Source: Malacoraja senta (Eukaryota). From it: 64,000 nucleotides of DNA. Location of the stretch: contig CM075991.1 of NCBI GenBank assembly GCA_038087875.1, positions 9,488,001-9,552,000 on the forward strand, in the 5' to 3' direction. Positions 5,265 through 59,367 of the stretch are shown here, piece after piece. Numbering within the stretch: position 1 is the stretch's first letter; each line of letters starts with the position of its first letter. Under the pieces are notes generated by a model. It saw only the letters and a list, made by a program, of their open reading frames with translations, ran no database searches and had not been told where the DNA came from. Position numbers and translations under genes: made by a program.

Positions 5265-5807
5265 TTGTGTTAAAGAAGGAACTGCAGATGCTGGAAAATC
5301 GAGGTACACAAAAATGCTGGAGAAACTCAGCGGGTGCAGCAGCATCTATGGAGCGAAGGAAATAGGTAACGTTTCGGGCCGAAACCCTTCTTCAGACTGA
5401 TAGGGGGTGGGGAGAAGAAAGGAAAAAAGGAAAAATGCGGAGGAGGAGCCCGAGGGCTGGGGGAGGGGAGGAGACAACCAGATGGCTGATGAAGGGGAGG
5501 GGACAGCAAGGGCTAGCAGAATTGGGAGAATTCAATGTTCAGGCCACCAGGATGTAGACTGCCCAAGCGGAATATGAGGTGCATTTCCTCCAATTTACGG
5601 TGTTGCTCGCTGTGGCCATGGAGGAGACCCAGGACAGAGAGGTCAGATAGAGTTGGAGGGCAGGGGGGATCACAGAGATGGGGCAGTTAGAGAGTTGGGT
5701 GTGGAACAGTCTCCGGAGAGAGGAGGAGAACTTCTTCAAAGTAGGCATACCTTGACGAGATTTCGCAGTGGAGTAGACAAAGTGTTAAAGAAGGAACTGC
5801 AGATGCA
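5265..5807 (-). mobile_element. Internally deleted Penelope-like element (ORF start fused to GIY-YIG C-terminus plus terminal repeat with hammerhead)
   Basis: Minus strand carries ..SDLSVLGLLHGHSEQHRKLEEMHLIFRLGSLHPGGLNIEF; 25-bp direct terminal repeat (5267-5291 and 5782-5806); flanking 14-bp duplication GTGACAATAAACTA. Confidence 0.75.
5368..5395 (-). ncRNA. Minimal hammerhead ribozyme motif (GUU triplet)
   Basis: CUGAAGA-A-GGGUU-UC-GGCCC-GAAAC-GUU downstream of the PLE endonuclease. Confidence 0.6.
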
Positions 5808-6025
5808 GTGACAATAAACTAAACTGAACATGTAGCTCGGCGTGGGTAAGTTGGGCGGAAGGGCCTGTTTTCCACATTGTATGACTCTATGACTAAATAA
5901 AGGACAACAATTGAATTTAACGTGAAACAGCTTTACAAGTGAGAGCATAGAGACTTGATTATTGCATTTAAAATATAAATCTACACAAACTACCAGCTTT
6001 TAAACATTCAGTAATCATCACTTGT

Positions 6026-6217
6026 TGAAGATTGGCACAAAAAACTGGAGTAACTCAGTGGGACAGGCAGCATCTCTGGAGAGAAGGAATGGGTGACGTT
6101 TCGGGTCGAGACCCTTCTTCAGTCTTGACCCAAAACGTCACCCATTCCTTCTCTCCAGAATTGCTGCCTGTCCCGCTGAGTTACTCCAGCATTTTGTGTC
6201 TACCTTTGATTTAAACC
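6026..6217. mobile_element. Inverted doublet of PLE terminal repeats (hairpin element)
   Basis: ctggagtaactcag..gcagcatctctggagagaaggaatgggtgacg and its reverse complement around a hammerhead motif. Confidence 0.7.
6095..6122 (-). ncRNA. Minimal hammerhead ribozyme motif (GUC triplet)
   Basis: Exact CUGAAGA-A-GGGUC-UC-GACCC-GAAAC-GUC. Confidence 0.6.
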
Positions 6218-6635
6218 TTCGATCCTACACATCATCACTTGATAATTTGGCTTCATCTCATCCTTTTAACTTTGATGTGCCGTGAACTATAGACTTGCCC
6301 CCATCGCTCATGGTTTTCGGTGTAATCAAGTCCCATTAGTCCTGCACATCATCTTCATTAGTTGGCCCATCCCACCTTCCAGCCAAACTCTGCCTGACTC
6401 ATTCCATCTCAATCTGAACAAGCGTACCTTTGATGAAAACCAGCAATCAATCCATCAGTCAGAAGCACCTCAGAAAATAAGAATACCGATGATTGATCAC
6501 AATAATTAAGTTATGCATCAAGCCATTCACCTTGAAGGAAAAGCTTTAATGGTTGGTGTCCTTTGAAGAGGACGTTCTCTGGATTTACAAGACACAATTA
6601 GCCAGTTGCGAATGAAGAGCAAAAACTGCGCTCTA

Positions 6636-6940
6636 ATTTAGATTTTATAGTTTTGTAGATGCAGCGCGGATACAGGCCACCGAGTATGCGCCGACCAGTG
6701 ATCCCCGCACATTAACACTATCCTACACACACTAGGGACATTTTTTTTAACATTTATACCAAGTCAATTACCCTACAAACCTGTACATCTTTGGAGTGCG
6801 GGAGGAAACCGAAAATCTCGGAGAAAACCCACTTGGTCACAGGGAGAACAAACAAACTCCGTACAGACAGCACCCGTGGACGGGATCGAACCCGGGTCTC
6901 TGGCGCTGTAAGGCAGCAACTCCGCCACTGTGCCGCCCAC
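6636..6940 (-). mobile_element. tRNA-derived SINE (HE1-like)
   Basis: Reverse complement of the same consensus with A/B boxes. Confidence 0.85.
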
Positions 6941-7375
6941 AATCTGACCTTGTTCATCCACATGAAGCACAGCATCGGAGAATGAGGAGAGGCAGATTTC
7001 AGGGCAGACCTGGTGAGCATCAAGAACCCTGAGGCAAAGCACTGAGCTCACGCCGTAAAGGTCCAACAATCCACTTTCCTTTTATTTCACCAATGCACTT
7101 GTGATGTAGAAACAAGGAACTGCAGGTGCTGGTTAACAAAAGAAGTGCTGGAGTAGCTCAGTGGATCAGGCAGCATCTCTGGAGTACATGGATAAGTAGA
7201 AACAAGGAACTGAGGGAGGAAACCGGAGCACCTGGAGAGAGCCCACGCGGTCCCAAGGAGAACGTACAAACTCCATACAGACAGCACCCATAGTCAGGAT
7301 CAAACCTGAGTCTCTGGTGCTGTAAGGCAATAACTCCACCGCTGCGTCAATATGCCGCCCCATAGAAATTCATCT

Positions 7376-7740
7376 TCATAAAAGGACTGGACAAGCTAGA
7401 TGCAGGAAAAATGTTCCCAATGTTGGGCGAGTCCAGAACCAGGGGCCACAGTCATAGAATAAAGGGGAGGCCATTTAAGACTGAGGTGAGAAAAAAAATT
7501 TCACCCAAAGAGTTGTGAATTTGTGGAATTCCCTGCCACAGAGGGCAGTGGAGGCCAAATCACTGGATGGATTTAAGAGAGAGTTAGATAGAGCTCTAGG
7601 GGCTAGTGGAACCAAGGGATATGGGGAGAAGGCTGGCACGGATTATTGATTGGGGACGATCAGCCATGATCACAATGAATGGCGGTGCTGGCTAGAAGGG
7701 CCGAATGGCCTCCTCCTGCACATATTTTCTATGTTTCTAT
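7376..7740 (+). mobile_element. CR1 LINE 3' fragment
   Basis: Near-identical to 19967-20338; CTATGTTT tail. Confidence 0.85.
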
Positions 7741-8875
7741 CTCCATTCTAAAGGCATGTCCTTTTATTCTGAGACTGTACCCTCTGGTTATTTACTCTCC
7801 CATAACTGGAAACATTCTCTCCACATCCGCTCCATCTGAGCCTCTGAAATGTGGCCTGGCCCGCTGAGCACCCTGTGTCATCTCCAATGGGCAGAAGCCA
7901 CTGTTTCTAAGTTGTATCTCCCAACTAAACTAAAGGAAAACGCTGGCGGCAAGCGCAGTAACTTTATCAGATCTCTACCATACCCTACACCAGCCTCTAC
8001 CCCACTGCTGGTCTGCGAGTAGCCTCTACATGGGGTCAAAGGTCTCCAAGATTCTGGAGTGGTTGACATCAATAACAACACGGATTTGCTGCTACATGCA
8101 TTGTGATTGAATGGTGGAGTAGACTCCATGGGCCAAATGGCCTAATTCTGTTCCTTTGACCAATGAACACATGTACCAGACTGGTCCACCTTCTCTCAAC
8201 ATAGAAGCAAAATGCAGGAGTAACTCAGCAGGACAGGCAGCATTCTGAAGACTCTGAAGAGATGCTGCTTGTCCCGCTGAGTTACTCCAGCTTTTTGTGT
8301 CTATCTCCGGAGTAAACCAGCATCTGCAGTTCTTTCCTGCACCATCTTCTCCCAAGCCCTTCATTTTACACTGGATCTCTCTGATCAATGTTTCCGCAGT
8401 GGGCGATCGATGTAAACTGATTTTCAGTTCAACGAACAAATTGTAAGAAAGAACTTTACAACATTATGCTGATATTTAAGTTAATGAAAGGACCATGCAG
8501 GAACAAGATCTTGGTGCTCCAATAAATCATTGATTTACTGTGCAGTGGATCATGGATGTGCTGATTACTTACAAGGTTCTCACTGGTGGGAGCCTGCTGT
8601 TAATCAGACCTGCACCACAGAGGCAATTCATCCACCACAGGGATCGCCCACGATCTATCCTACTGCAGGAAGGAAAGTTCGTGGTGTTTCCTGCGAGATG
8701 TTCATTTGCACTGGATCAAAGCTACCTGACAATTTGCTTTGGTTTTTCAAGCTGAGCTTCCTCGGCAATAATGCAACCCGATCCGTAGCCAAGTTTATTC
8801 CTGTCCTCGGTCAATGCTTTGTGCCATAAAGCACAGCAGGTCAGGGGCTCATTTTAAGTTGTATCTTTCTCTCTC

Positions 8876-9672
8876 GCACATACACATAGGCACGTGCATG
8901 CAGGCACACCAAGACAGGCACATGCACACACACACACACACACACAGGCGTGCACACGCACACACATTCAGTTGCACACACACACACTCAGTTGCACACA
9001 CACAAAGGCGTGCGCGCACATACACACGCAGGTGCATGCAGGCATGTGCACTCATAAAGGTACATGCCAATACACATACAGGCATGCACACACATGCACA
9101 CTTAAACGTATGCACACAGGGGTGCACACATTCACAGGGGCACACACATAGGGGCACACACACAGGGGCGCACACACACAGGGGCACACACACACAGGGG
9201 CACACACACACAGGGGCACACACACACAGGGGCACATACACACAGGGGCACACACACACAGGGGTGCACACACACAGGGGCACACACACACAGGAGCGCA
9301 CACACACAGGGGCACACACACACAGGGGCGCACACACACAGGGGCACACACACACAGGGGGGCACACACACAGGGGCACACACACACAGGGGCGCACACA
9401 CACAGGGGCGCACACACACAGGGGTGCACACACACAGGGGTGCACACACACACAGGGGCGCACACACACAGGTGCGCACACACACACAGGGGCACACACA
9501 CACAGGGGCACACACACACAGGGGGGCACACACACACACACAGGGGCACACACACACACAGGGGCACACACACACACACAGGGGCACACACACACACACA
9601 GGGGCCCACACACTCACACACACAGGGGCGCGCACACTCACAGGCACACACACTCACACCACACACAGGCAC
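8876..9672. repeat. CA-rich minisatellite, core unit GGGG(CA)4-7
   Basis: Directly visible tandem array; most regular at 9117-9630. Confidence 0.95.
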
Positions 9673-9828
9673 CATGAACAGTTCTACCCCATCTCCAGTA
9701 GCAGGGATAAGAAGGTCCCATGAGGTAGGCTACACTTTCACCCCTTTGATAGGCACAAAATGCTGGAGTAACTCAGCGGGACAGGCAGCATCTCTGGAGA
9801 GAAGGAACGGGTGACGTTGCGGGTGGAG

Positions 9829-10010: not shown

Positions 10011-11447
10011 TTCAGACTCACCCCTTTGCACTTTCACCCCTGTGCCCTGCTGGGCGGAGGCTGTCACGGCACCAGGTAGAAAAGGGACAGGTACTGGGAG
10101 CTGGGGCCAAAGCCGAGAGCCCCTACAAAGGTAATCCCAGGGAAATGTACCTGGCCAGACATGAGTCACCAAAACCAAGCATGCACCAGTTTCCTTGCAA
10201 CATGCACAAATGACACATTTAAAATTGATGGGTTATTTTTTGGACACAATAATCGCACATTAAAAGCTATTCATTAACAGCCCTGTCATTTACTGAGTCT
10301 AATGTTGCAAGGTATGACTCTTTGCTACACACTTGATGAGCTGGTGTGACAGCAATTAATAGAGACATTACTCTTGTTTTCAGGCTTTACAAGCTATTTT
10401 TATTTTAGACTGGTTTTGTCCCATTCTGGTATTTGTGCATGGCCCTGAAATACAGACATGTGGGATCAAATGAAGAGCTGATCATGAGGGAAGATTGGAT
10501 AAATACTTAAGAAGGAACTGCAGATGCTGGAAAATCGAAGGTAGACAAAAGTGCTGGAGAAACTCAGCGGATGCAGCAGCATCTATGGAGCGAAGGAAAT
10601 AGGCAACGTTTTGTTCAATCATGGCTGATCTATCTTTCTATCTTAACCCTATTCCCCTGCTTTCTCCCCATAACCCCTCGCTAATCAAGGATCTATCTAT
10701 CTTTGCCTTAAAATATTCCTTCTCAAAGAGTCAGAGAGTCAATCAGCACCGTAACAGGCCTTTCGGCCCACCATATCCATGCTGACTATCAAATACTTAC
10801 CCACGTCAAGTACCCAGCTCAGTCTGAGGAAAGATCCTAACCCAAACTGTTACCATGTTCTCCAAAGATGCTGCCTGACCTGCTGAGTAACTCCCAGACT
10901 TTGTGTCTTTTTTGGTAAAGCAACATCTTCAGTTCCTTGTATCCACAAGTAACTTCTACACTAATCTCATTTTCCAGCACTTAATCCATAGCCCACTCTC
11001 TGCAATCTGTGCATGGAACCACTTGAACTGTGCTATCGGCTAACTATACAGACACCCTGCTGCTTACCCTGACCCAACACAACAAACCAACAGCCAAGCA
11101 CCACAGGCAAATTGAGAACTGGCCATGCTTATTATTCTGGCATCCTGGTGTTTTGTTAGTGTTTTACTAATCCAACAACCATTAAAGTGCTTCCTTTGTA
11201 ATAAAAGGTATCAACACAAACCAATTGTGTTCGTCAAATTACAGAGATATTTATGTGCTGCTTTCTCCAGCAAGTATGCATGAATGAATTATACTTTATT
11301 GTTCATAAGTGATAGGAGCAGAATTAGGCCATTCGGCCCATCAAGTCTACTCCGCCATTCAATCATGGCTTATTTATCTCTCCCTCCTAATCCCATTCTC
11401 CTGCCTTCTCCCCATAACCCCTGACACCTGTACCGATCAGGAATCTA

Positions 11448-11616
11448 GAAACTCAGCGGGTGCGGCAGCATCTATGGAGCGAAGGAAATAGGCAACGTTT
11501 CGGCCCGAAACGTTGCCTATTTCCTTCGCTCCATAGATGCTGCCGCACCCGCTGAGATTCTCCAGCATTTTTGTCTACCTTCGATTTTCCAGCATCTGCA
11601 GTTCCTTCTTGAACAA
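11448..11616. mobile_element. Fold-back PLE terminal-repeat insertion with TSD, inside a CR1 fragment
   Basis: Palindrome centred on gtttcgg-c-ccgaaac; 13-bp duplication GATCAGGAATCTA at 11435 and 11619. Confidence 0.8.
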
Positions 11617-13356
11617 CTGATCAGGAATCTATCTATCTCTGCCTTAAAAATATCTCTTGACGGCCTCCACAGCCTTCTGTGTCAATGAAATCCACAGATT
11701 CACCACCCTCTGACCAGGGTACCTAGGCACAATGAAATGCTTTGTTTTGCACACAACCTAGGCAGTACACGAGAAACCAAGTGTAAAAGTAAGTGTGAGG
11801 GTAGGGTTGCATCTGTATGACAGATTGAGATTCAACCTCTCCATCCCCATCGCCCCTCTCCCTTCCATTCTGTTGAGATTGATGTGCATCCCTTGTTGAA
11901 GGGACACAAAGTAAGCCTGATGAGCACTTGGCTGGAAAATGCTCGAGGTTGATTGAAAAGATTGCATGGCTGATCAGAAGATTGCTGAGATGCCTGCTCC
12001 TGTATTATTTTGAAGAGAGAAACCTACATTTTCTTAATCAGTCGCACACAGTTAGATCTGATGAATCAAAAGGCATTTAATAAGGTCATAGCTGAACAAA
12101 GAAAACTTCAGAAGCTGTAATTGAAAACGAAAACAGAAAAGGTGGAAGAACGCAGCCATTCATGCAGCATCTGCGGAAAAAGAAACCAAGTGATATTTCA
12201 GATCAGGGACCCTTCCTCAGTAAGTGACCCTAACCCAAAAGCTCATGGCTAATCTGATAGTAACCTCAAATCCACACTCATGTTAATCCCAATATTCTTT
12301 CATCTTAACATGAATCTATCCAATTCTATCTTTAGGATATTCATCAACTTCCATTACATTTTAGAGAGATCCAAAGACTACCCGTTATATGGGAGAAAAA
12401 TTATAACCTCATTTCTGACATAAATGGGCAATGCTTTATTTTTAATTAATGACCCCCTAGTTTAAGATTCTCCTGTTAGAAGAAACATCTTTGTTGAATC
12501 CATCCTGCCAAGACCCATCAGGATCTTGTATGGCTTTAATCAAGTCCTCTGCCTCAGGCAGGTTCTCTGGATGCTTTCAAGAGAGAGCTAGATAGGGCTC
12601 TTAAAAATAGCGGAGTCAGGGGATATGGGGAGAAGGCAGGAACGGGGATGGGGATTGGGGATGATCAGCCATGATCACATTGAATGGAGGTGCTGGCTCG
12701 AAGGGCCGAATGGCCTACTCCTGCACCTATTGTCTATTGTCCATTGTCTCTCTTATTCTTCCAAACTCAGTAAGCCTGGTTTCTCTAACTTCCCTTCAGT
12801 AGACCAACAGCTCATACCAGATAACAGTCCACTAAACAGACTTTGAACTGCTTTCAGCAGGTTAACATTCCTCCCTCGAGTAAAAAAAATACAGCATTAT
12901 GTACACTAGACCACAGTGCGCGCTCACTAACAATCGGTATAAAACTTTGGTTGACAAAAATGCTGGAGAAACTCAGCGGGTGAGGCAGCATCTATGGAGC
13001 AGAGGAAATAGGCAATGTTTCCGGTCAAGACCCTTCTTCAGACTTCAAACCTTTCCTGTGTTTGCAATCTGTTCCCTTCCAGATAAATGATAACATTCTG
13101 ATTACCTGCTGGACTTGCTGTTAGTCTTCACGTACCAGGATATTCAGGTCTTTCAGCATCTCAGATCAGCAATCCTAGGATGTGCATATCTCTGAAGATC
13201 TGCCCTGGTCCCAGCACATTGATGCAATTTGTAAAGGAAGCCTATCAAGCCTCTACTTCCAGAGAAGATGTAGTCCCCCTCCCATACGATACGATAGAAC
13301 ATTATTTATCCCAGGCGGGAAATTGATCTGCCAACAGTCATAAACACACAAAATAC

Positions 13357-13787
13357 ATGAATCATCCGGACTTTTCTATCCTGGGCCTCATCCACTGCAA
13401 ATTGGAGGAACAGCGCCTCATATTTTGCTTGGGCAGCTTACAAACCAGCAGTATGAATATTGACTACTCTAACTGTAATCCTTGCTTTCCCTCTCTCTCC
13501 ATCCCTCCCCATCCTAGTTCTCTAACTGTCCTCCTGATTAAATTCAACTTTGTATGTTTTGTTGTCATCTTCCTGTAACTAACAGTTTTCTATTCTACAT
13601 TTATTTTTGCCTTGATCGCCATCCCCCTTGATCTCTTGTTTTCACAGCTTACCCTTCCATATCTCAATGTCTCCCTCCCCCCTGACTCTGTCTGAAAAAG
13701 GGTCTCGACCCGAAACGTCACCCATTCCTTCTCTCCAGAGATGCTGCCTGTTCCGCTGAGTTACTCCAGCATTTTGTGTCTATCTTT
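13357..13787 (+). mobile_element. Degenerate Penelope-like element 3' fragment, second subfamily
   Basis: DFSILGLIHCKLEEQRLIFCLGSLQTSSMNIDYSN followed by pyrimidine-rich UTR and hammerhead-like motif at 13692-13719. Confidence 0.7.
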
Positions 13788-13799
13788 ACAGATCCCATA

Positions 13800-14130
13800 T
13801 GTTGCCTTATTGCACTTCTACAGGTGTGCGGTAGAGTCTATTGGTTGCATCAGGGCTTGGTTCAGCAATTTAAACACACACGAATGCAGATTACAATAGG
13901 TGGTCAACGCCTTTATGGGTACTGACCTCCCTAAGATGCAAGGAATACTTAGAAGGCGATTTCTCAAATAGGCAGCCAGAATCAAAGACCTGCACTATCC
14001 TAGCCACCTCTCTCACCATCGGGAAGAAGGTATAAAAATCTAAAAACCATGACCACCAGGTTCAAGAATAGCTTCTTCCCAACAACCATCAGGCTCTTTA
14101 GTACTACGAAACACGAACTTAACTATGAAC
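13800..14130 (+). mobile_element. Degenerate Rex1/Babar-like LINE 3' ORF fragment
   Basis: FYRCAVES and TTRFKNSFFPTTIRL motifs. Confidence 0.6.
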
Positions 14131-14517
14131 TATGCACCAAGGACTTTGAGCTTTTTTTACACTGGTATTGGGGGTTATTAATTAATTGAATGATTTTATT
14201 TTTTTAATTACCTAAGTGTATGAATATGCTGTTGAAGATAGACACAAAATGCTGGAGTAACTCAGCGGGTCAGGCAGCATCTTTGGAGAAAGGGAATAGG
14301 TGACGTTTCGGGTCGAGGGCCTTCTTCAGAGGAACTGGACGGCCGTTCTCTCACGGGAAATGGTGCTCGATCAGCCGGTGGTAACGCCACAGGGTCGAGA
14401 ATTTTACCCTAATCTCGGGCAGTATCCGTCTCATCCGCCCAACCTACGCGCTTAGAGTTGAGGGATGAATTTCCAGTCACAGGTGTGTTAATTTAGCACT
14501 TCTGATGAAATTCCTAT

Positions 14518-14802
14518 TATAGACAATAGACAATAGGTGGAGTAGGCCATTCGGCCCTTCGAGCCAGCACCGCCATTCAACGTGATCATGGCTGATCATC
14601 CCCAATCAGTACCCCGTTCCTGCCTTCTCCCCATATCCCCTGATTCCGCTATTTTTAAGAGCCCTATCTAGCTCTCTCTTGAAAGCATCCAGAGAACCTG
14701 CCTCCACCGCCCTCTGAGGCAGAGAATTCCACAGACTCACCACTCTCTGTGAGGAAAAGTGTTTCCTCGTCTCCTAAATGGCTTACTCCTTATTCTTAGA
14801 CT
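14518..14802 (-). mobile_element. CR1 LINE 3' fragment, (CTATTGT)n-tailed subfamily
   Basis: Matches copies at 37.1, 38.8, 47.3 and 58.2 kb. Confidence 0.85.
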
Positions 14803-15175
14803 GCCATTCTGCTAAAGACACGAAAAATGTGCGCCGAAAAATCTGGATTTCCAAATAGTAACGCCTTATCAGCACTGCACACATTTACAGCTTGCCTTCA
14901 TCCCGTGGCTCGTTGACTTTAACAGAGACAGTGGTTGCTTTTCGTACCGCGGTGTCGGCGAAGGCTACGAGCCTGCTTATTCGTGGTCAAATAAATCATC
15001 GTGAGCCACAATACAGCTCAAACGTTCACCAAATATTGTTGAACACTGAACGTTTCTGTACAAGAGGGAACCGTGCAGCCGGCGAGGCAACAATGCGACG
15101 CAGAAACGCCGGTGATATATTACATTTACACGCCGTTGTTAGTCGGCGACACATGCACAGTTTGCCCTTAAAGTG

Positions 15176-15805: not shown

Positions 15806-15807
15806 TC

Positions 15808-16788: not shown

Positions 16789-17397
16789 AAAAAAGACGAT
16801 GGGAATATAATAGAGTTAGATAATCAGTTTGTGCTGGAAGGAACTGCAGATGCTGATTTAAACCGAAGATAAGACGCAAAATGCTGGAGTAACTCAGCGG
16901 GACAGGCGGCATCTCTGGAGAAAACGAATAGTTTCGAGTCGAGACCCTTCTTCAGACTGAGAGTCAGGGGAGAGGGAAACGAGAGATATAGATGGGGTAG
17001 TACAGAGTCTGAAGAAGGGTCTCGACCCCAAACATCACCTATCCATGTTCTCCAGAGATGCTGCCTGGACAACCAGCATTAAACAAAGGACGCAAAGTGC
17101 TGGAGTAACTCAGCGGGCCAGGCAGCATCTCTGGAGAACATGGATAGGTGATGTTTGGGGTCGAGACCCTTCTTCAGACTCTGTACTACCCCATCTATAT
17201 CTCTCGTTTCCCTCTCCCCTGACTCTCAGTCTGAAGAAGGGTCTCGACTCGAAACTATTCGTTTTCTCCAGAGATGCCGCCTGTCCCGCTGAGTTACTCC
17301 AGCATTTTGCGTCTTATCTTCGGTTTAAATCAGCATCTGCAGTTCCTTCCAGCACAAACTGATTATCTAACTCTATTATATTCCCATCGTCTTTTTT
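16789..17397. repeat. Perfect 280-bp inverted repeat with 49-bp spacer
   Basis: 16789-17068 is the reverse complement of 17118-17397; the ORF track gives identical peptides on opposite strands. Confidence 0.95.
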
Positions 17398-18123: not shown

Positions 18124-18811
18124 TAGACACAAAAAAATGCTGGAGGAACTCAGCGGGTCAGGGAGCATCTCTGGAGAAAATGAACAGGTCTCTTGAGACC
18201 CGTCTCGACCCGAAACGTCGCCCAATCCTTCTCTCCAGAGATGCTGTCTCTGTCCCGCTGAGTTACTCCAGCATTTTGTGTCTATCTCCGGGGTAAACCA
18301 GCGTCTGCCCTTCCTTCCTAAACTAAACTAATGCCGGACTCACTTTTCTTTTCTGCTCTAGAAGGCGTGATAAACTGGAGAACATCTTGTTCAATAATCC
18401 TCTCGCACTCCCACGCTCCGGTGTCGTTTCCCCATCGTTCATTCCGATTATCAGAATGTCCTTCTGGTAAACTGACGGCAGCAACACAGGGCGGAGCGAG
18501 AGGTCAGTGCGTGCGAAACACTGTCGAAATCGACAGCCCTGTGGTTGGGATTGAACTGAGCTTTCCGCTTGTTAGGGGAGGGACAAGTAGATGATATGTG
18601 GGTGGGGGGTGGAGGGGAAGGGGGAGGGTGGTGGTGAAGGTTATAGGGATTGACTTTAAGTGTCAGCTGGAAGTCCACACGGTCCGCGCTTCGGCGAAGA
18701 AGGGTCTCTACCCGAAACGTCGCCCATTCCTTCTCTCCAGAGAGGCTGCCTCTCCCGCTGAGTTACTCCAGCATTTCCTGGCTGTCTTGGGTGTAAACCA
18801 GCTTCCTACCC

Positions 18812-18846
18812 ATTTTACTTCCGTGCGCCTTTCCCCCTTCCTACAG
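18812..18846 (+). promoter_or_regulatory. Putative splice acceptor in front of the first coding exon (implies upstream non-coding exon)
   Basis: ttttacttccgtgcgcctttcccccttcctacAG|G, 178 nt upstream of the ATG. Confidence 0.55.
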
Positions 18847-19024
18847 GACTTTGTTGGCGGTGGGGATAAGCCGGGAATTGGGAAGTGGACCTGTCGATTC
18901 CTCGCCAAGCCACCGGGAGGGAACTCGCTCGCCCTCTGCCCTCTCCACCAGCCGCGCGGGGTCCCAGCGCCGAGTTGGAGGCGTTTCCCTGGAAGTTCCT
19001 TGGAAGGCGAGATCTCCGGATGAA

Positions 19025-19937
19025 ATGGGTCTCCTCTCCGAGAACAAGAGCTGGGTGGTGATCGTGAACTGCACCTCCTGCGGTCACTCGGTGAACCCCT
19101 TCCGGGCCGTGGCTTTGGGGGTGGTGCTGGGCTCCTTCATCCTCTTCGCGATCTTGGGCAACATCTTGGTGGTCCTCGCGGTGGCTCTCCACAGGAACCT
19201 GCAGACGGTCACCAATTACTTCATCATCAACCTGGCCATCGCGGACCTCCTCCTCAGCTGCTCCGTGCTGCCCTTCTCGGCCACGCTGGAGATCCTGGGC
19301 TACTGGACATTTGGCCGCGTCTTCTGCAACATGTGGGCTGCCATGGATGTCCTCTGTTCAACCGCCTCCATTCTGAGTCTGTGCGTTATCTCCATCGACA
19401 GGAACATTGGAGTGAGCTACCCCTTGAGACACCCAACTATCATGACCGAGAAGAGGGCCCTGTTGACACTGGTGGCGGTTTGGTCGCTGGCCCTGGTGAT
19501 ATCTGTCGGACCATTGTTTGGTTGGAAAGAACCTCCTCCAGACGACGAGGCCATCTGCAGGATCACGGAGGAACCGGGCTACGTCTTGTTCTCGGCCTTT
19601 GGGTCCTTCTACGCCCCCTTGACCGTCATCCTCGTTATGTACTGCAGGGTCTACATCGTAGCCAAGCGAGAAACCAAGAGTCTGTACGCTGGGACCAAGA
19701 GAGAGAGACTGCGGGCGGACCAAGTTACGCTGCGCATCCACCGCAAAGACAACCAGGCGGAGAGCTCTCCTCGACTCTCCGAGCACGGCTCCAAAAGCAA
19801 AGGCACTCAGATTAAGTCACACTTATCCATCTTGCTTCTCAAGTTCTCCAGAGAGAAGAAGGCCGCCAAGACTTTGGGAATAGTGGTTGGAGGCTTCATA
19901 CTATGCTGGCTTCCGTTCTTTGTGGTTCTCCCAATAG
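19025..19937 (+). CDS. ADRA1A: Alpha-1A adrenergic receptor-like GPCR, coding exon 1 (N-terminus to TM6)
   Basis: ATG at 19025 in strong Kozak context (gaaATGg). Translation [10 protein letters not shown]...GNILV...NLAIADLL...[12 protein letters not shown]...[12 protein letters not shown]...WKEP...FSAFGSFY...[17 protein letters not shown]...[12 protein letters not shown] aligns with alpha-1 adrenoceptors. Ends at donor ATAG|GTAAG, the conserved alpha-1 intron position. Symbol is ADRA1A-like; orthology not proven. Confidence 0.93.
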
Positions 19938-19943
19938 GTAAGG

Positions 19944-20338
19944 ATCGTATAGAAACATATAAAATTATAAAAGGACTGGACAAGCTGGATGCAGGAAAAA
20001 TGGTCCCAATGTTGGGCGAGTCCAGAACCAGGGGCCACAGTCTTAGAATAAAGGGTGGGGGGGGGGGTCATTTAAGACTGAGGTGAGAAAAAACGTTTTC
20101 ACCCAGAGAGTTGTGAATTTGTGGAATTCCCTGCCACAGAGGGCAGTGGAGGCCAAGTCACTGGATGGATTTAAGAGAGAGTTAGATAGAGCTCTAGGGG
20201 CTAGTGGAGTCAAGGGATATGGGGAGAAGGCAGGCACGGGTTATTGATAGGGGACGATCAGCCATGATCACAATGAATGGCGGTGCTGGCTCGAAGGGCC
20301 GAATGGCCTCCTCCTGCACCTATTTTCTATGTTTCTAT
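19944..20338 (+). mobile_element. CR1 (HER1-like) LINE 3' fragment inserted in the splice donor
   Basis: [28 protein letters not shown]1 ORF2 end; (CTATGTTT) tail; GTAAGG on both sides. Confidence 0.9.
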
Positions 20339-21050
20339 GTAAGGGCGCATTTTGTTTCGAGTAGTAAGTTTAGGCTGGTGTTGCCGAGGTTAGTGCACGT
20401 TGACCATTATATGCATCGCGTAAACTGCACACTGCCCCCATCCGACCTTGAGATACCTCGCCTCGGTGTCCAAAACACTCTCATATCTTATCTCGTTATC
20501 AGATAAATACTATGTCTGACCGCGGCGCGTAAATCAATTGAGTCGCCCATTGCCATAAATTCATTCCAATTTGAAACATTGATAGCCAAGACCAAACCAG
20601 ATCTTGCAGGACAAGGACGATGAAGGAGGGTCTCGACCAGAAACGTCACCCATTCCTTCTCGCCAGCGATGCTGCCTGTCCCGCTGAGTTACTCCAGCAT
20701 TTTGTGTCTGCCTTCGATTTAAACCCGCATCTGCAGTTCTATCCACCACATTTGTCAATTGAATGATGAACGCTCGCATTTAAAGAGGCTGATATACCGA
20801 GCAGCTACCGTCTGATAGGAATTCGCAGTTGACTTCCAACGTCCTTGGTACTTACTTCGAAGCACATCATAAAATAGGCCGGTCAACGTGGTTTTGTGAT
20901 CTTGAGATCTTGCCCGACCAACCTGTTGGAATTCTTTGAGGAAGTAAATAGCAGGATAGACAAAGGAGAGGCAGTGGGTGTCGAACATAGGCACAAAAAG
21001 CTGGAGTAACCCAGCGGGTCAGGCAGCATCTCTGGAGAGAAGGAACGGGT

Positions 21051-21078
21051 GACGTTTCGGGTGGAGACCCTTCTTCAG
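21051..21078 (-). ncRNA. Minimal hammerhead ribozyme motif, antisense to the gene
   Basis: CUGAAGA-A-GGGU-CUCC-ACCC-GAAAC-GUC. Confidence 0.5.
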
Positions 21079-21115
21079 ACTGAGAGCCAGGGGGAAAGGG
21101 AAACGAGAGATATAG

Positions 21116-21118
<3 letters not shown>

Positions 21119-21204
<86 letters not shown>
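21119..21204. repeat. (GA)n microsatellite
   Basis: About 43 units with one interruption. Confidence 0.95.
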
Positions 21205-42654: not shown

Positions 42655-43087
42655 AAGGTACACAAAAATGCTGGAGAAACTCAGCGGGTGCAGCAGCATC
42701 TATGGAGCGAAGGAAATAGGTAACGTTTCGGGCCGAAACCCTTCTTCAGACTGATAGGGGGTGGGGAGAAGAAAGGAAAAAAGGAAAAAGGCGGAGGAGG
42801 AGCCCGAGGGCTGGGGGAGGGGAGGAGACAACCAGATGGCTGATGAAGGGGAGGGGACAGCGAGGGCTGGCAGAATTGGGAGAATTCAATGTTCAAGCCC
42901 CCAGGATGTAGACTGCCCAAGCGGAATATGAGGTGCATTTCCTCCAATTTACGGTGTTGCTCGCTGTGGCCATGGAGGAGACCCAGGACAGAGAGGTCAG
43001 ATATGGAATGGGAGGGGGAGTTAAAGTGCTGAGCCACCAGGAGTTCAGGTTGGTTATTGCGGACCGACCGGAGGTGTTCGGCGAAAC
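42655..43087 (-). mobile_element. Penelope-like element 3' fragment (GIY-YIG endonuclease C-terminus, 3'UTR/pLTR)
   Basis: FAEHLRSVRNNQPELLVAQHFNSPSHSISDLSVLGLLHGHSEQHRKLEEMHLIFRLGSLHPGGLNIEF has the EH, HF, R..E...I and L.P.GLN motifs of PLE endonucleases; near-identical to the copy at 5.3-5.65 kb. Confidence 0.85.
42722..42749 (-). ncRNA. Minimal hammerhead ribozyme motif (GUU triplet)
   Basis: CUGAAGA-A-GGGUU-UC-GGCCC-GAAAC-GUU, same strand as and 3' of the PLE endonuclease motifs. Confidence 0.6.
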
Positions 43088-44087
43088 TGAATGGAGTTGA
43101 CTGAATGGAGTGAATGAATAGAGTTGACTTTCCACTGCCCTCGGTGTGGACTCAGTGGACCGAAGGGCCTGATTCCTGCGCTCCAAGGAATAGAGTCCCA
43201 GCCTACTCAACCCATAGCTCAGACCCTCCTAGACCGGGCAAAATCCTCGTAAATCCTACATACTTAATCAGTTAACAACTAATCATCTTACACAAGGAAT
43301 GTTGTGCTTGCAGTAATGAGTAGGAGATAGAAGTGTGATCTGGAAGGAGGTGATTCTCCCCCAACCACGATCTCAAAAAAATTGTGTTAATAGGTTCATA
43401 AAATTACATGGAAACACAGGAACTGTTGTTGCTGGATTTTTACGTAGAACACAAAATGCTGGAGTAACTCAGTGGTTCAGGCAGCATCTCTGTAGGACAT
43501 GGATAGGCAACGTTTTGGGTCAGGACCCTTCTTCATACTTGTACATTGGGGATAATCCATAACTAATGTTCAAGATTAGTGCTGCCTTTCTGGCTTTTGA
43601 ATCTTACTTTGAGCCCTGCCTGAATGAGTATATTATTTTGTTGCCGATTTAAGTGCCAGCCTAGTGTGAAAGTTGCATTAAGAGTTCCGCTCTTTTCCCA
43701 TATCCGATCCAAATAACGGGCAAACCATCATCGGAGTTGTGGTTGTCGATTCCAAGGAGTTTGGTTTCTAGTTACACATCGGAGAATTGAGTCATAGAGT
43801 CATACAGCGTGGAAACAGGCCCTTCGGCCCAACTTGCCCACGCCGACCAACATGTCCCATCTACACTAGTCCCACCTGCCTGCATTTGGCCCCATATCCC
43901 TCCAAACTTGTCCTATCCATGTACCTGTCTAAATGGTTCTTAAATGGTTGTTGTTGCAAAACCACTCAACCTCTCCCCTCTATACAACATGACATCTAAC
44001 TGTTATGCTCAATGCCCCCTCTCACCTTCCGACTGATGGAGGTAATCTTCTTTACCATTCTATCTACTTGTGCAGTCAAGAGTCTTA

Positions 44088-44405
44088 TGGCCCTGTCCCA
44101 CTGTACAAGTTCATTCAAGAACTCTCCCGAGTTTAAAAAAAAATCAAACTTGTGGTAACATGTAGAATGTACGTAGCGGGTACGTCGGAGCTTGGGGACG
44201 TCTCTTAGCGGCTTGTAACTCTAACGGCAGGTACTCGGGAAACGCGGGAAGCTCGGGAAGACGCGTGAAGATTTTTCAACATGTTGAAAAATGTCCACGA
44301 GAGCCCCGAGTACCTACGAGCGGCTATTACCGTAAATCTCCGAGTTCGAATCAGGGCAAACTCGGGAGAACTCTTTGAATGAACCCGTACAGTGGGACAG
44401 GGCTT
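44088..44405. mobile_element. PIF/Harbinger-type MITE
   Basis: TIR GCCCTGTCCCACTGTAC..GTTCATTCAA; flanks TTA / TAA. Confidence 0.8.
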
Positions 44406-46083
44406 TAAGTGTGTTTAATCGTCACAGGTACTGACAACCAAACAACAAAATTCTGACTCGCTGTAGTTTAAGGGAAGCACAGTCGCACAGCAGTAGAGTT
44501 GCTGCCCTGCAGGGTTAGATGCCCAGGATCGATCCTGACCACGGGCGCCGTCTGCACGGAGTTTGCACGCTCTTCCGGTGATCACGTGGGCCCTCTATGG
44601 TTGCTCCGGTTTCAAGATCCAGTCTAAACATCCAGACAGCATTGAGAGAGTGTTGCACAGTCATGGATGCTATATTAAGGCAGAGATTGATAGATTCTGG
44701 ATTAGTACGGGTGTCGGGGGTTATGGGGAGACAGCAGGAGAATGGGGTTGAGAGGGGAAGGTAGATCAGCCATGATTGAATGGCGGAGTTGACTTGATGG
44801 GCCAAATTGCCTAATTCTGGCTCGCAGAACTTGAAATAAGATGTTAAATTGAAGTCTCAACCTGTCCAAAACCTTTGAAGAAGAACAGCAGAATTCTTTC
44901 CAGTGACCTGGCCAATATTTATTCCTTTTTCAACATTACTAATGCAGGGAATATGGCCATTATCACGTTACTGCTTGTGGTACCTGAACGTGCATAGGTT
45001 GCCTGACATATTTCTAACAACAATGATCTGAAACAGATCTGAATAAATCATGGGCAATTTTTATTCTTTTATTTGAAGTCTAGCGCAGCGTAAGGTCTGG
45101 TGGAAATATCAGTCGGAAATGTAGGAGCTTCGTATAAAGTAGCATTAGCCACCAGGTCATTAGGCAGCAGAATGTCGAGCTTCAGTAGCAAATCAATGGA
45201 AATATTTACCTCAACTCACTCTACAGACTAAATGAAAATATGTGCCAAAGTGGCTAAAACTGTAAATATTTGAAGTAAAGGAAATAAAGGGAAGTAGGGA
45301 AAGACCAGGTTTATGGGATTTATTTTTTGGATCGCTTCTGGGAAGAACGTACAATCTCCGTATGGACAGCACCTGTAGTCAGGGTCGAACCCGGGTCTCT
45401 GGAGCTGTTAGGCAGCAACTCTACCACTGCACCACTGTCGTGTACACACCATGAGCGATGTTTGTAAGCTTCATCCACAGGGTCTAGCCCCACAGTGTGG
45501 AAGGGCAGGAGAGCTATCGACTGTTGCCTTCACCCATACTGCCTTTGCAGCTGCTGCTTTAAGCTTCAGCGCGTCCCTCAGCATGGTCCCTTCCCTGCAA
45601 ATGGGCCAGTCAGCTACATGTTGTTCTGTTCACCCAGAGAGTTGTGAATGTGTGGAATTCTCTGCCACAGAAGGCAGTGGAAACCAATTCACTAGATGTT
45701 TTCAAGAGAGAGTAAAGATAGAGCTCTTAGGGCTAACGGAATCAAGGGATATGTGGGGGAAAAGCAAGAACAGGGTGCTGATTTTGGATGATCATATTGA
45801 ACGGTGGCGCTGGCTCGAAGGGCCGAATGGCCTACTCCTGAACCTACTTTCTGTGTTTCTATGTTCAGCCCCTTGCACCAGAAGTCCAGCAGGCTTCAGT
45901 CGGGCCAAATTGCACATGCATCCCCTGAATGATCACATTTAACCCGAGTAGTAGGATGGCTCGATTGTAATCATGTGTACTCTTCCACTGACTGCTTAGC
46001 ACGCAACACAAAAGCTTTTCACTGTACCCCGGTACACATGACAATAATCCAAACTAAACAGTAATCGTACCCCTTTTACTGTG

Positions 46084-46236
46084 TTTAAGAAGGAACTGCA
46101 GATGCTGAAAAATCCCAGGTACACAAAAATGCTGGAGAAACTCAGCGGGTGCAGCAGCATCTATGGAGCGAAGGAAATAGGCAACGTTTCGGGCCGAAAC
46201 GTTGCCTATTTCCTTCGCTCCATAGATGCTGCTGCA
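46084..46236. mobile_element. Fold-back PLE terminal-repeat insertion with 12-bp TSD
   Basis: CCTTTTACTGTG at 46072 and 46237; palindrome centred on gtttcgg-g-ccgaaac. Confidence 0.8.
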
Positions 46237-47301
46237 CCTTTTACTGTGCATTGGTTACACTGGTAATGAACTTGCCTGTTTTCGGGAACTTGTGGGATAC
46301 CTCACCTGGGTTGTGATAGTGTTCACTGTGTTTCTTTGGTGAATGAACAGAAAGAGGTCACTTGCAAATTTAATATTACACTGAACATCAAAAAATGTTT
46401 ACCGAAGACAAGAAACCAAGAGTCTTATTGGCAGAAAACGTGCTTAGAATTTGTCTTGTAATGCAACTCGGCTGTGAAGTAAAATATTTATTGATCTGCT
46501 TTTGCCTTGTGCTTAACATTCCACTCTGCTGTTGGTACAATCTTTAATACAAGAAAATGCAAGTAGCTATCCTTCACAACCTTCATTGTTGTTTTCATGC
46601 AGAGCTTGCAGCTCAGTGTATCCTAATATCAGAATCAGATCCATCTTCCTTTCTTCCCACCTACCTGTATCCACCTTTCACTTGTGGATACAGGTAGGTG
46701 GGAAGGAACTGTAGATGCTGGTTTACACCGAAGATAGGCTGGAGTAACTCAGCGGGCCAGGCAGCATCTCTGGATAGAAGGAATAGGTGACGTTTTGGGT
46801 CGAGACCCTTCTTCAGCCTGAAGACCTCAGTGTGAAGAAGGGTCTCGACCTGAAACGTCACCCATTCCTTCTCTCCAGAGATGCTGCCTGTCCCGCTGAG
46901 TTACCCCATCCAGGCTTTTGTGTCCATCCACCCATCACTTGCCAGGCTTTATCTGCCCCCCACCCCGACTACAACCTGAAGAGTCCTAACCTGAAACTTC
47001 ATCCGTTCATTCCCTCATCAGATGCTGCCCGACCCACTGAATTACTCCAACACTTTGTGTTTTTTCCTCCTTCATTTGGAACCATAGAACCATATAGCAG
47101 GGAAACAAGCCCTTCGGTCCAACTTGTCCATGATGACCAAGATGCCCCATCTAAGCTAATCCAACCTGCCCGCATGTGATCCGTATTCCTCTAAACCTTT
47201 CCTTTCCATATTTATTTACTTGGAATCATAAAGTCATACAGTATGGAAAACAGGCCCATCGGCCCACCTTGCCCACACCGACCAACATGTCCCATCTAAC
47301 A

Positions 47302-49760: not shown

Positions 49761-49800
49761 AGACTTTATTACAGTATGGATATGAGATCTTCATTAGCCC

Positions 49801-49894
49801 TTCTGAAGAAGGGTTTCGACCCGAAACGTTGCCTATTTCCTTCGCTCCATAGATGCTGCCTCACCCGCTGAGTTTCTCCAGCATTTTTGTCTAC
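49801..49894 (+). mobile_element. PLE terminal-repeat insertion with 12-bp TSD
   Basis: CTTCATTAGCCC at 49789 and 49895. Confidence 0.8.
49803..49830 (+). ncRNA. Minimal hammerhead ribozyme motif (GUU triplet)
   Basis: CUGAAGA-A-GGGUU-UC-GACCC-GAAAC-GUU at the start of a TSD-flanked insertion. Confidence 0.55.
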
Positions 49895-50559
49895 CTTCAT
49901 TAGCCCATCCCTGTTAACCAGGTTGAAACTCAATGTCATTGAGTTTGTCAAAATGTAGAGCTTTAACATTTAATAAAAACAGCCAATGTTTTAACCGATG
50001 AGTTGATTGCCTACACGAGCTGGCTTTCAATCCACACAAAAGACATTCTGCCGTTTTTAGTCCCAACAACAAACCTTGAATCAAAACACAGACAGAGGTA
50101 GGTCTGAGTGGATTTTCAAGTCTATTCCTGTCAGCTATACACTGTAAACATGAATTGTCCGGATTGGTTTGTGATTGGAAATGAACAGTTCAGATAACAA
50201 TAGTGCCAACAACATTAAATATGAATATATATTAAAAACAATTTGTCTTCATTTTTTTCCACCCTTACATTGAGCATCACTGGCTAGTTTATTGCCTACA
50301 CATTAATGGCAAGTAAGAATTTCATTGCTCTATCTGGGACATATGACCCTAAAACACTCTTGACCCTTGACTACAGGTAAGCTACCTTTCCGAACGCCCT
50401 TCTGAGGGACTCGTGATCAGATGATCAATGGGCAGCATGGACTCGGTGGGCCGAAGGGCCCGTTTTCACGCTGAATCTCTGAGCTTTCCATCTGAGAACA
50501 CGGTGTGTAGAAAGGCGCCCAGGTGTCATTTGGAGAGCCAATATCAGAAACAGAACCAG

Positions 50560-51542: not shown

Positions 51543-52140
51543 TTAGTTTAGTTTAAGTTCAAAGATACAGCACGGAAACAGGCCCTACGTCCACCATGTC
51601 CACGCCGACTGCCGACCACACTGGCTATTTGTTACCCACTCACATCCACTCCCTTGCACACTTGGGGCAATTTACAGAGGGCCAATTAACCTATAAGCCC
51701 GAATGCCTTTGGGATGTGGAGACACACGCGGGTCACAGGGAGAACGTACAAACTCCACATAGACAGCACCCGAGGTCAGGATCGAACCCGGGTCTCTGGC
51801 GCTGTGAGGCAGCGGCTCTACTAGCTGCGTCACTGTGACTGTTTAGTTTAGAGATACAGCGCGGAAACAGGCCCTTCAGCCCACCGGGTCCGTGGCCGAC
51901 CAACGATCCCCGCACACTAGCACCATCCTACACACACTAGGGACAATTTACAATTTTACCAAGCCAATTAACCTCCAAACCTGTGCATCTTTGGAGTGTG
52001 GGAGGAAACCGGAGCTCCTGGAGAAAACCCACTCGGGTCACGGGGAGAACGTACAAACTCCCTACAGACAGCACCCGTAGTCAGGATCGAACCCGGGTCT
52101 CTGGCGCTGTTAGACAGAAACTCTACCGCTGTGCCACCGG
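51543..52140 (-). mobile_element. Two tandem tRNA-derived SINEs
   Basis: Copies at about 51543-51835 and 51841-52140. Confidence 0.8.
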
Positions 52141-57236: not shown

Positions 57237-57263
57237 CTCCCATTACCTTCCTTTGGTTTAAAG

Positions 57264-57299
57264 GGGTCTGAAGAAGGGTCTCGACCCGAAACGTCGCCC
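57264..57299 (+). ncRNA. Minimal hammerhead ribozyme motif with 4-bp stem I
   Basis: GGGU-CUGAAGA-A-GGGUC-UC-GACCC-GAAAC-GUC-GCCC. Confidence 0.65.
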
Positions 57300-57943
57300 A
57301 TTCCTTTTCTCCAGAGATGCTTCTTCTTCTTTTCGTGTCCATCTTGTTACAAATGTTGACCTCGCTGTCATCGTCCGTCCTGAAAAGGACGCAAGCTTCC
57401 GGCGACAATCAGTGGGAGCTGTCTCTTGTGGCAATAGATGATGGTGGTAGCAGAATTAGTTCAGGATACTTCCAGTTTCCAGCCACGTGACGTGGATGCT
57501 TCTGCTAAGGGGCTTCCAGAGATGCTGTCTGACCATCTGAGTTACTCCAGCTGTTTGTGTCTTTCTTTGGTTTAAAGCAGCATCTGCAGTTCCTTCCTAC
57601 ATAACCCATCACTGTTGCTTTCTATAGCGAAGCCAATTATAGACAATAGACAATAGACAATGGACAATAGGTGCAGGAGTAGGCCATTCGGCCCTTACCA
57701 AGCAATTACCTATCATTGCTGTAGCAATGGTAGAACGTGCAAACAAACTGGAGGTCATGATTGAACGTGGGTCACTGAAGCCGTGAGGCAGCAGCTCTAC
57801 TTACTGTGTCATACCTGATTTCTTAAGAAAGTCCTACCCAACAGGTGAAAACAGCCCATGTGCCACCAAACTCCCAGTCACGCATGTAAGGAAAGAGATG
57901 AAAAAAGGAACTGCAGCTGCTGGAATCTTGAACAAAACAAAAT

Positions 57944-58208
57944 GGGGCGGCACGGTGGCGCAGTGGTAGAGTTAGTGCCTTACAGCGGGTACGGTCCTGA
58001 CAAAGGGTGCTGTCAGTACGGAGTTTGTAAGTTCTCCCCGGTCACCACGTAAGTTTTCCCCGGGTGCTCCGGTTTCCTCCCGCACTCCAAAGATGCACAG
58101 GTTTGTAGGTTAATTGGCCTCAGCAAATTGTCCCTAGTGTGTGGGATAGTGCTAGTGTACGGGGTCATCGCTGGTCGGCGCGGACACGGTGGGCCGAAGG
58201 GCCTGTTT
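57944..58208 (+). mobile_element. tRNA-derived SINE; tail replaced by the CR1 pair
   Basis: ggcggcacggtggcgcagtggtagag..gggccgaagggcctgtttc. Confidence 0.8.
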
Positions 58209-58827
58209 CAATAGACAATAGACAATAGACAATAGACAATAGGTGCAGGAGTAGGCCATTCGGCCCTTCGAGCCAGCACCGCCATTCAATGTGATCATGG
58301 CTGATCATCCCCAATCAGTACCCCGTTCCTGCCTTCTCCCCATATCCCCTGACTCCGCTATTTTTAAGAGCCCTATCTAGCTCTCTCTTGAAAGCATCCG
58401 GAGAACCTGCCTCCACCGCCCTCTGAGGCAGAGAATTCCACAGACTCACCACTCTCTGTGAGAAAAAGTGTTTCCTCGTCTCCGTTCTAAATTCCTGATG
58501 TTGGGGGAGTCCAGAACCAGGGGCCACAGTTTAAGAATAAGGAGTAAGCCATTTAGAACGGAGACGAGGAAACACTTTTTCTCACAGAGAGTTGGTGAGT
58601 CTGTGGAATTATCTGCCTCAGAGGGCGGTGGAGGCAGGTTCTCTGGATGCTTTCAAGAGAGAGCTAGATCGGGCTCTTAAAAATAGCGGAGTCAGGGGAT
58701 ATGGGGAGAAGGCAGGAACGGGGTACTGATTGCGGATGATCAACCATGATCACATTGAATGGCGGTGCTGGCTCGAAGGGCCAAATGGCCCACTCCAGCA
58801 CCTATTGTCTATTGTCTATTGTCTATT
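58209..58827. mobile_element. Head-to-head pair of CR1 3' ends
   Basis: Minus copy 58209-58492 and plus copy 58493-58827; tails point outward. Confidence 0.85.
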
Positions 58828-59323
58828 ATCTATCTCTCCCTCTGAACCCCAATCTCCTGCCTTCTCCCCAAGAATTGGCAGACTGCACACAGTTATTGGT
58901 CGAGGTGAGAATACAATCTGGGTCGCTGGAGATGTGAGCCAATGTTCCTTTGTGCCAACTGCCCGAGTATTTGTGTTTGTTGGCAAGACTACGTCTACAG
59001 TATGATCGTCAATACGTTGTTCCACTCTCGCCTGGTGGGTGACTCAGAATTGGATGGTGGGCAAGATCATAGTGGCTTTGCGTAGATGTGTTCATGGTGA
59101 AACTGTGGAAAGCACTGGAGGCTTGACGAAAGCAGACAAATGCCTGCGGCTTAATTCCTTCGACATCCAAAGGCTGGCCAAAAGAAACATCCACTCAAGG
59201 AAACAAAGTTGGGTCTAACTTTGAAAGTTAAAAGTAAACGGGCGAGACCCTATGATGCGTGTTTGGCATTCAGTGCTCTGACCTTCCAGCCTATCAATGC
59301 CCATCTATGGATGGAGTGATCAA

Positions 59324-59367
59324 GAATGAGTCTGAAGAAGGGTCTCGACCCGAAACGTCACCCATTC
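59324..59367 (+). ncRNA. Minimal hammerhead ribozyme motif with 7/8-bp stem I
   Basis: GAAUGAGU-CUGAAGA-A-GGGUC-UC-GACCC-GAAAC-GUC-ACCCAUUC. Confidence 0.65.

Follow-up and report, generated by a model that had tools for sequence, protein, structure and literature searches.

What are the short repeats that are scattered over a 64,000-nucleotide stretch of the genome of the skate Malacoraja senta (assembly GCA_038087875.1, contig CM075991.1, positions 9,488,001 to 9,552,000; hereafter the window, with coordinates counted from its first base), and why do so many of them begin at nearly the same base? The original prediction, made from the sequence alone, had read them as carriers of a minimal hammerhead ribozyme (min-HHR) derived from a Penelope-like element (PLE). 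Our analysis identifies the repeat as the hammerhead-plus-tail segment (~95-130 bases) of the pseudo-long terminal repeat (pLTR) of a Neptune-type PLE, and finds that random truncation does not account for the short copies. Positions in the repeat are numbered from the C of CUGA (C3), which is position 0. Cleavage is predicted to follow +27, which makes +28 the first base of any cut RNA.

The ends of the repeat were mapped in 115 young copies of subfamily B, chosen by an exact match to +49..+92 alone (most are among the first 100 genome matches listed, and unselected loci and the window supplied the others). The 3' ends of 97 copies fell at two sites, 63 at +92..95 and 34 at +127..132. These sites delimit a 37-nt optional tail, as in other PLEs, and match the two tail priming sites of an anole PLE (Frangieh et al. 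2024, PMC11167929). As for the 5' ends, 14 were found in +11..+48, 22 in +1..+10, 37 in 0..-6, 8 in -7..-122 and 34 further upstream (six of which reach the end of the fetched DNA). A total of 53 copies begin within -6..+7, with the mode at -2 (16 copies), and the per-base stop rate falls 40-fold, from 0.067 in 0..-6 to 0.0016 in -7..-122. A similar share of 251 other copies (131) begin in -6..+7; imperfect references blur the edges in this set. Target duplications of 8-21 bp were observed in 33 of the young copies and abut the 5' edge directly in several, and 28 young copies are head-to-head fold-backs. At loci L137, L155, L235 and L240 the first ~10 bases are repeated ahead of -2, which suggests a physical template end. 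In contigs of three other organisms, loose ends were found at -6..-3, +93..95 and +128..130.

When loci containing the start of the open reading frame (ORF) were compared, 28 of 30 could be anchored: nine begin at -5..+20, one at -16, 14 at -136 or beyond and four at +71..+131. Eight of the 28 (seven distinct) break at +266..+284 and mostly resume at or upstream of the hammerhead edge; the query used could detect breaks only beyond about +265. The same partial-tandem type is present in the window as an insertion at 5251-5821(-), in which +105..+263 (5648-5806) is joined to about -260..+129 (5267-5660) and which is flanked by 14-bp target duplications (5808-5821 and 5251-5264).

Two smaller features of the unit were also recorded. 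A second, smaller cluster of 5' ends lies at -200..-210, inside the end of the endonuclease (EN) sequence (5 of the 16 ends in -123..-400; L222, L245, L132, L168 and L252), and may be an upstream RNA start or a preferred break site. Just upstream of tail site 1 there is a small hairpin, conserved by eye in all subfamilies (about 2996-3013 in locus L023 and about 42670-42685(-) in the window) and formed in the predicted fold of the 21.0-kb copy; it is a candidate binding or priming signal.

The carrier was characterised through its EN. Searching the genome with a 79-amino-acid (aa) EN fragment from 42.9 kb of the window returned 76,612 first-look candidates, with 91-100 % identity in the best 150, and in all 16 fetched long-frame loci the repeat stands directly after the stop of the frame. 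The longest open frame found (1245 aa, locus L022) contains a reverse transcriptase (RT), a GIY-YIG/CCHH EN and, between them at aa 1112, a C-X4-C-X2-C linker; its matches to RVT_1 (E = 4e-6) and GIY-YIG (E = 0.0015) are both under the curated Pfam cut-offs. Because a CX2-5CxxC linker marks Neptune or Nematis PLEs (PMC8557442) and only Neptune and Poseidon PLEs were found in vertebrates in a preprint, Neptune is the likely clade on sequence grounds. The optional tail, the partial tandems and the inverted 5' copies (28 of 115) are Neptune-clade traits. At the tandem junction of L023 the order is EN, pyrimidine tract (pLTR), hammerhead (HHR), tail and a candidate ORF ATG at +163.

Seen from the EN side, the repeat lies downstream of the EN end in 42 of 43 young cases, 22 of 25 old-type cases and 15 of 18 cases in unselected loci (59 loci of 10 kb), which bears out the predicted PLE origin. 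Seen from the repeat side, EN is upstream in only 20 of 293 copies (the same 59 loci plus the window). EN-linked copies are known for subfamilies A, B and C. In seven of them the spacers range from 108 to 240 nt, yet all converge on TCAGT followed by the core (six of seven exactly).

Within the window, three repeat copies (5.3, 13.4 and 42.7 kb) had been placed directly 3' of a GIY-YIG endonuclease. All three do follow an EN C-terminus; none of these three fragments holds the GIY-YIG motif itself, and Pfam gave no match for the window EN fragments. The fragments at 5516-5653(-) (the C-terminal 46 aa, 96 % to the L022 frame, within the partial-tandem insertion) and 42870-43085(-) (the C-terminal 72 aa) are 96-97 % identical to the EN C-terminus and lie 122 nt upstream of a core. 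The latter is part of a young 5'-truncated PLE of subfamily B (42653-43085, minus strand), which has a pyrimidine tract, a core at 42722-42749 and an end near tail site 1. The third copy is an old 5'-truncated PLE (13357-13790, plus strand) with a degraded EN end (about 13369-13473), a 220-nt pyrimidine spacer and the downstream blocks. Its EN fragment was missed by tblastn at 1e-4 and is recognised by its translation, which matches the same EN C-terminus; its genomic relatives are the old-type set, in which the repeat lies downstream of 22 of 25 EN ends. G5 of its hammerhead (13692-13719) is changed to A. Separately, an older EN fragment with a pyrimidine spacer is found at 34158-34312(-), where another repeat replaces the hammerhead directly after TCAGT.

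How well does the core itself fit a hammerhead? In the window, 39 loci lie within six mismatches of the two 28-mers used as queries, 24 within three and five are perfect, so the predicted figure of about 25 copies was a fair one; the reversed window gave no locus within six mismatches. All 11 core bases are kept in 11 of the 39 loci. A strict descriptor (core, 4-bp helix II and paired 15.2-16.2) matched eight sites in the window, namely the seven predicted intact cores, each at its predicted position and strand, and an additional one at 12220(-), with no match in the reversed window or in five block shuffles. Searched with nhmmer, the complete repeat has 83 matches in the window (139-61966, both strands, many as head-to-head pairs) and none in the control. 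The sequence of the motif fits the published consensus of PLE min-HHRs, including the extra base after A9, and stem III is loop-less and self-complementary as predicted. Helix II had been drawn as 5 bp with a 2-nt loop; its pairing is indeed kept across subfamilies, and its geometry is best read as 4 bp with a tetraloop, closed by G10.1-C11.1, each of the four pairs being formed in 329-370 of 400 anchored copies. Helix I consists of only 2 bp (G-U against A-C). It is intact in five of the eight strict window cores, and it is 2 bp long in 48 and 3 bp long in three of 62 strict cores from sampled genome loci; a third pair is possible in 71 of the 400 copies. A longer helix I formed with the distal block +63..67 was set aside by inspection, as this block is able to fold into a local hairpin of its own and does not adjoin the cut site.

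The copies in the window illustrate these forms. The core at 5368-5395(-) belongs to young subfamily B and has its 2-bp helix I intact. At 6024-6210 there is a head-to-head pair of subfamily A units with the core at 6095-6122(-), in which helix I is broken. A pLTR fragment of subfamily A at 20980-21085(-) carries an intact core (21051-21078). Short units begin at -1 (49802-49898(+), intact core 49803-49830, helix I broken by the junction) and at -2 (57266-57320(+), shortened on the 3' side, core 57268-57295), and a full short unit of subfamily A (59329-59460(+), start -2/-3, core 59332-59359) includes the downstream conserved blocks and the tail. Further head-to-head pairs among the repeat matches are found at 11436-11585, 41876-42051, 46097-46258, 46719-46934, 60394-60591 and 61815-61966; miRNA-like Rfam matches at repeat sites come from such pairs.

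The very high copy number that had been proposed holds genome-wide. The exact core descriptor gave 76,353 matches in 1.94 Gb (one per 25 kb; control 0), and the 44-mer of young subfamily B has 19,898 exact matches. When 99 evenly placed 10-kb loci were surveyed, 459 fragments were counted, which extrapolates to 0.90 million (bootstrap 0.77-1.04); this sample over-represents small contigs, which are 1.5 times denser in fragments, and the density of large contigs gives about 0.75 million. The genome thus carries roughly 0.75-1.0 million repeat fragments. The predicted density of one copy per 2.5 kb is appropriate for fragments (about one per 2.2 kb) and not for intact cores. The 62 strict cores in the same sample extrapolate to 122,000; the small-contig bias and the looser descriptor explain why this exceeds the exact count. 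A search for a second min-HHR family with another helix II gave 1,506 matches (control 31), and nearly all of the 100 listed were mutated copies of the same family.

Across five subfamilies, the same majority base was observed at -5..+11, 15, 17-19, 21-26 and 29-30. Where subfamilies differ, the change either sits in loop II or leaves the pair intact (U-A becomes U-G at 11/16 and -1/28), the cut-site base is C or U, and position 20 differs only in a nine-copy group. The subfamilies were defined on +26..+56, so that variability measured there is circular; the seven EN-linked copies that converge on TCAGT and the core despite their different spacers give a view free of this circularity.

Is the motif active as a ribozyme? 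Few young copies begin at +28, and the templates were therefore mostly uncut. Slightly more 5' ends fall at +28..32 than in the flanks (7 of 111, from five events; rate 0.013 versus 0.002 on both sides), with fold-backs as a confounding factor. Genome-wide, a sharp spike at +28 was not found, and a shoulder with many fold-backs was observed instead. The patterns for starts near the cut site gave 1,361 and 1,679 matches, and in a hand count of the 100 matches listed per pattern +28 was raised at most 1.3- to 2-fold over uniform expectation. Among 47 fetched loci many were fold-backs or internal deletions, and clean non-inverted starts at +28, +29, +30, +31, +32 and +33 numbered 3, 3, 3, 2, 1 and 2, respectively. 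The excess at +28..32 is only a hint of cut RNA. Other results count against the ribozyme part of the reading. A 2-bp helix I is the lower limit of the published range of 2-6 bp; when the window was scanned with the Rfam covariance models, which include the hammerhead models suggested for this purpose, no hammerhead family appeared among 52 matches at E ≤ 1; the pair probabilities of helices I and II are about 0 in a 53-nt context; no two-sided compensatory change was seen among the subfamilies, only one-sided ones; and by eye the downstream blocks look as conserved as the core. The hammerhead fold was never the predicted ground state, lying 1.6-1.7 kcal/mol above the minimum for the 34-mer and 12-15 kcal/mol above it for the dimer, and the predicted folds bury the core. 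A same-strand partner core within 1 kb is present for only 7 of 62 intact cores. In published tests cleavage was absent from single min-HHRs and weak in dimers; eight of nine Xenopus dimer constructs failed to cut (preprint); and the anole HHR cuts only with protein, which could not have been foreseen from folding energies.

What, then, sets the 5' edge? We favour, with moderate confidence, internal priming at the tail followed by run-off at the 5' end of the RNA, which would lie at the front edge of the hammerhead within TCAGT, a sequence resembling the initiator (Inr) consensus. A comparable TCACT is present in a published rotifer pLTR. The observed basis of this proposal is the anatomy of the element, the two 3' end sites, the sharp edge at about -2, the target duplications, the partial tandems restarting at +266..+284 and the same edges in the contigs of other organisms. 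The RNA of the element would start at the Inr-like TCAGT (-5..-1) and be terminally redundant. Short copies would be by-products of the element's own RT, with synthesis beginning 93 or 130 bases downstream at a tail site. Priming in the 5' tail copy would yield a 95- or 132-nt unit, much like strong-stop DNA, and priming in the 3' tail copy would yield ordinary 5'-truncated elements. At the edge the enzyme may join the target or fold back into head-to-head pairs; alternatively, it may jump to the RNA end near +270-285 and rebuild the pLTR. The motif would cut after GUC or GUU only as a dimer, probably with help from protein and most plausibly between the two motif copies of a single element RNA, and the majority of dispersed copies should be inert. 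A broader version, in which the genome is a million-event record of the Penelope RT, with an RNA start at the hammerhead edge, a strong-stop-like cDNA that integrates alone or jumps to the RNA 3' end and so rebuilds the pLTR (a step called unexplained in 2008), and a +28 shoulder left by ribozyme-cut RNA in the germ line, is offered more tentatively and is, as a whole, doubtful.

Several facts tell against run-off at an RNA start. Transcripts initiated at the Inr would begin at -3, one base ahead of the observed mode of -2, and the model has to assume that copying falls short by that base. In the Drosophila virilis element, 46 nt separate the start site from a downstream 75-nt intron whose end is at the HHR (Schostak et al. 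2008, PMC2377424), and this speaks for a splice acceptor at the same place here. Copies that extend upstream of -6 (42 of 115) and ORF-start loci continuous to -136 or beyond (14 of 28) need read-through RNA, strand transfer or circles. The observed stop rates (59/101 and 9/24) are fitted equally well by a roadblock.

Such a roadblock would leave the PLE origin unchanged: splice acceptor factors bound to the pyrimidine tract and the AG at -3/-2, or pairing between tract and core, would halt about half of the passes. The intron of D. virilis stops 4 nt short of C3 (Table S1; 416-491), U-rich sequence with YAG stands just upstream of many published min-HHRs (by eye), a donor-like GT is present at the ORF stop in four of seven EN-linked copies, the predicted fold pairs the pyrimidine tract with GAAGAAGG, and first-pass and second-pass stop rates are similar. 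However, in no copy was -1 preceded directly by a constant exon or by the +160 donor; among 89 subfamily B heads, host DNA is upstream in 43 and other element sequence is joined only in L330 (+271) and in a local duplication (L087); the abutting target duplications also speak against it, and a branch-point stop would be expected at about -7, not -2. We consider this explanation unlikely. Two further ideas were rejected: a back-spliced circle from the donor-like +160 to -1, whose junction was absent from the 89 heads (a local set only), and a lariat branch stop, for which the position of the edge is wrong. As a separate observation, an upstream ATG at +50 in L023 (2984-3095) opens 37 codons ending at the donor-like +160, just before the ATG at +163; this donor and the acceptor-like -1 resemble a 161-nt exon, of which no spliced copy was seen locally.

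The other two alternatives concern the nature of the short unit and of the motif. The original prediction envisaged a very large non-autonomous family, and an independent SINE- or retrozyme-like family of ~95-130 nt (SINE, short interspersed nuclear element), whose own copies are transcribed and mobilised in trans, would account for the defined 5' and 3' ends, the target duplications in 22 of 53 short copies and the scarcity of EN upstream (20 of 293); an Inr-like start inside the unit would permit transcription of solo copies. Against this, short (n = 43) and long (n = 35) young copies have no private variant and share a single polymorphism, at +28 (27 G:16 A in short and 15 G:20 A in long copies), in a small sample that was chosen by exact +49..+92 and compared over +4..+48 and the tail. 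Their use of the tail sites is also alike (33:15 in short, 20:7 in long copies), and the copies are dispersed without tandem arrays. Because no fixed difference separates short from long copies and EN-linked partners exist for subfamilies A, B and C, we read the short unit, in this small sample, as a product of the autonomous element; a separate family is improbable. We regard it as very improbable that the hammerhead has decayed, no longer cuts and survives as a promoter at the DNA level or as a binding signal for protein. Such decay would agree with a 2-bp helix I containing one A-U or G-U pair, the fold energies, the mostly uncut templates and the inactive Xenopus constructs; but subfamily changes are confined to loop II or preserve pairing with C or U at the cut site, published PLE hammerheads with a 2-bp helix I exist, the anole HHR does cut with protein, and 5' ends are mildly in excess at +28..32.

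Apart from the repeat, the window contains an alpha-1A adrenergic receptor-like gene with two coding exons (18797-20083 and 39782-40297, plus strand). Of the 24 repeat fragments in its ~19.7-kb intron, 15 are sense and nine antisense, and the only strict core among them, in the fragment at 21.0 kb, is antisense. Regions 12760-15000 and 41364-44600 have near-identical copies (L096 and L002; 99.96 % and 99.4 %) 71-72 kb further along the contig, pointing to a recent tandem duplication or an uncollapsed haplotype, which would include the receptor gene. Two repeat units, both old and diverged, make up a perfect 280-nt inverted repeat with a 49-nt spacer at 16789-17397; that sequence of such age has perfect arms points to a fold-back of recent date or an artefact of assembly. 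Long CA-rich minisatellites (8849-9700, with a 16-nt period at 9 kb, and 29240-29830) are the source of several spurious microRNA matches. Other abundant repeat families (e.g. 14513-14903, 37168-37467, 58222-58820; 51722-52126) resemble CR1/L2-type ends of long interspersed nuclear elements and a SINE.

Min-HHRs in the pLTRs of PLEs have been documented in the literature since 2014 (Cervera and de la Pena, PMC4209133). The metazoan examples share with the skate motif the CUGANGAH core, G10.1-C11.1, GAAA, a palindromic C-G without loop 3, a U-H cut site, pyrimidine-rich sequence upstream and an occurrence mostly as solo copies left by truncated PLEs; a 4-bp helix II of this geometry is also seen in the Acropora Neptune entry. 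The skate differs in having a 2-bp helix I, where most entries have 3-5 bp (a few in Fig. S3 also have 2 bp), and 76,353 exact cores as against about 4,000 in coelacanth and 9,000 in Xenopus, counts made with different descriptors. In the portion of that paper available to us, no cartilaginous fish is among the 56 representatives and solo copies with a fixed 5' edge are not mentioned. More widely, a search that left subscription papers and Repbase/Dfam outside found no report of a PLE hammerhead in sharks or rays, or of such an edge.

Three other systems can be compared. In the Anolis Poseidon PLE PAc (PMC11167929), two internal priming sites likewise define a tail, the HHR is in the pLTR, uncut RNA is the main template and no RNA-seq ends fall at the cut site. 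PAc differs in clade and in having its ORF begin in helix II, whereas the candidate ATG here is at +163; run-off at the HHR edge is not reported in the available part of that study. The Penelope element of D. virilis (PMC2377424) is alike in its internal pLTR promoter, partial tandems, tail and 2-bp helix I, but its start site lies 121 nt upstream of the intron end and the HHR edge is a splice acceptor. Non-LTR retrozymes (PMC7229834; 10.64898/2026.07.22.740005) are PLE-related, non-coding, HHR-bearing and of high copy number (126,247 HHRs in the 28-Gb axolotl genome). They form tandem repeats of 170-400 nt with mostly canonical HHRs and circular RNAs, whereas the skate units are dispersed, solo or head-to-head, and same-strand cores rarely lie close together (7 of 62).

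The scale of the skate family, together with its young members and 1245-aa frame, provides a ready in vitro system, and its copy ends are a natural readout of mechanism, as half stop at the 5' edge, not the cut site, and some restart near +270-285. Two open questions on PLEs, by what route pLTRs and partial tandems are restored and whether the templates ever include cut RNA, become simply testable. Compared with these known systems, the kind of ribozyme is familiar, and the fixed 5' edge is the part worth experiment.

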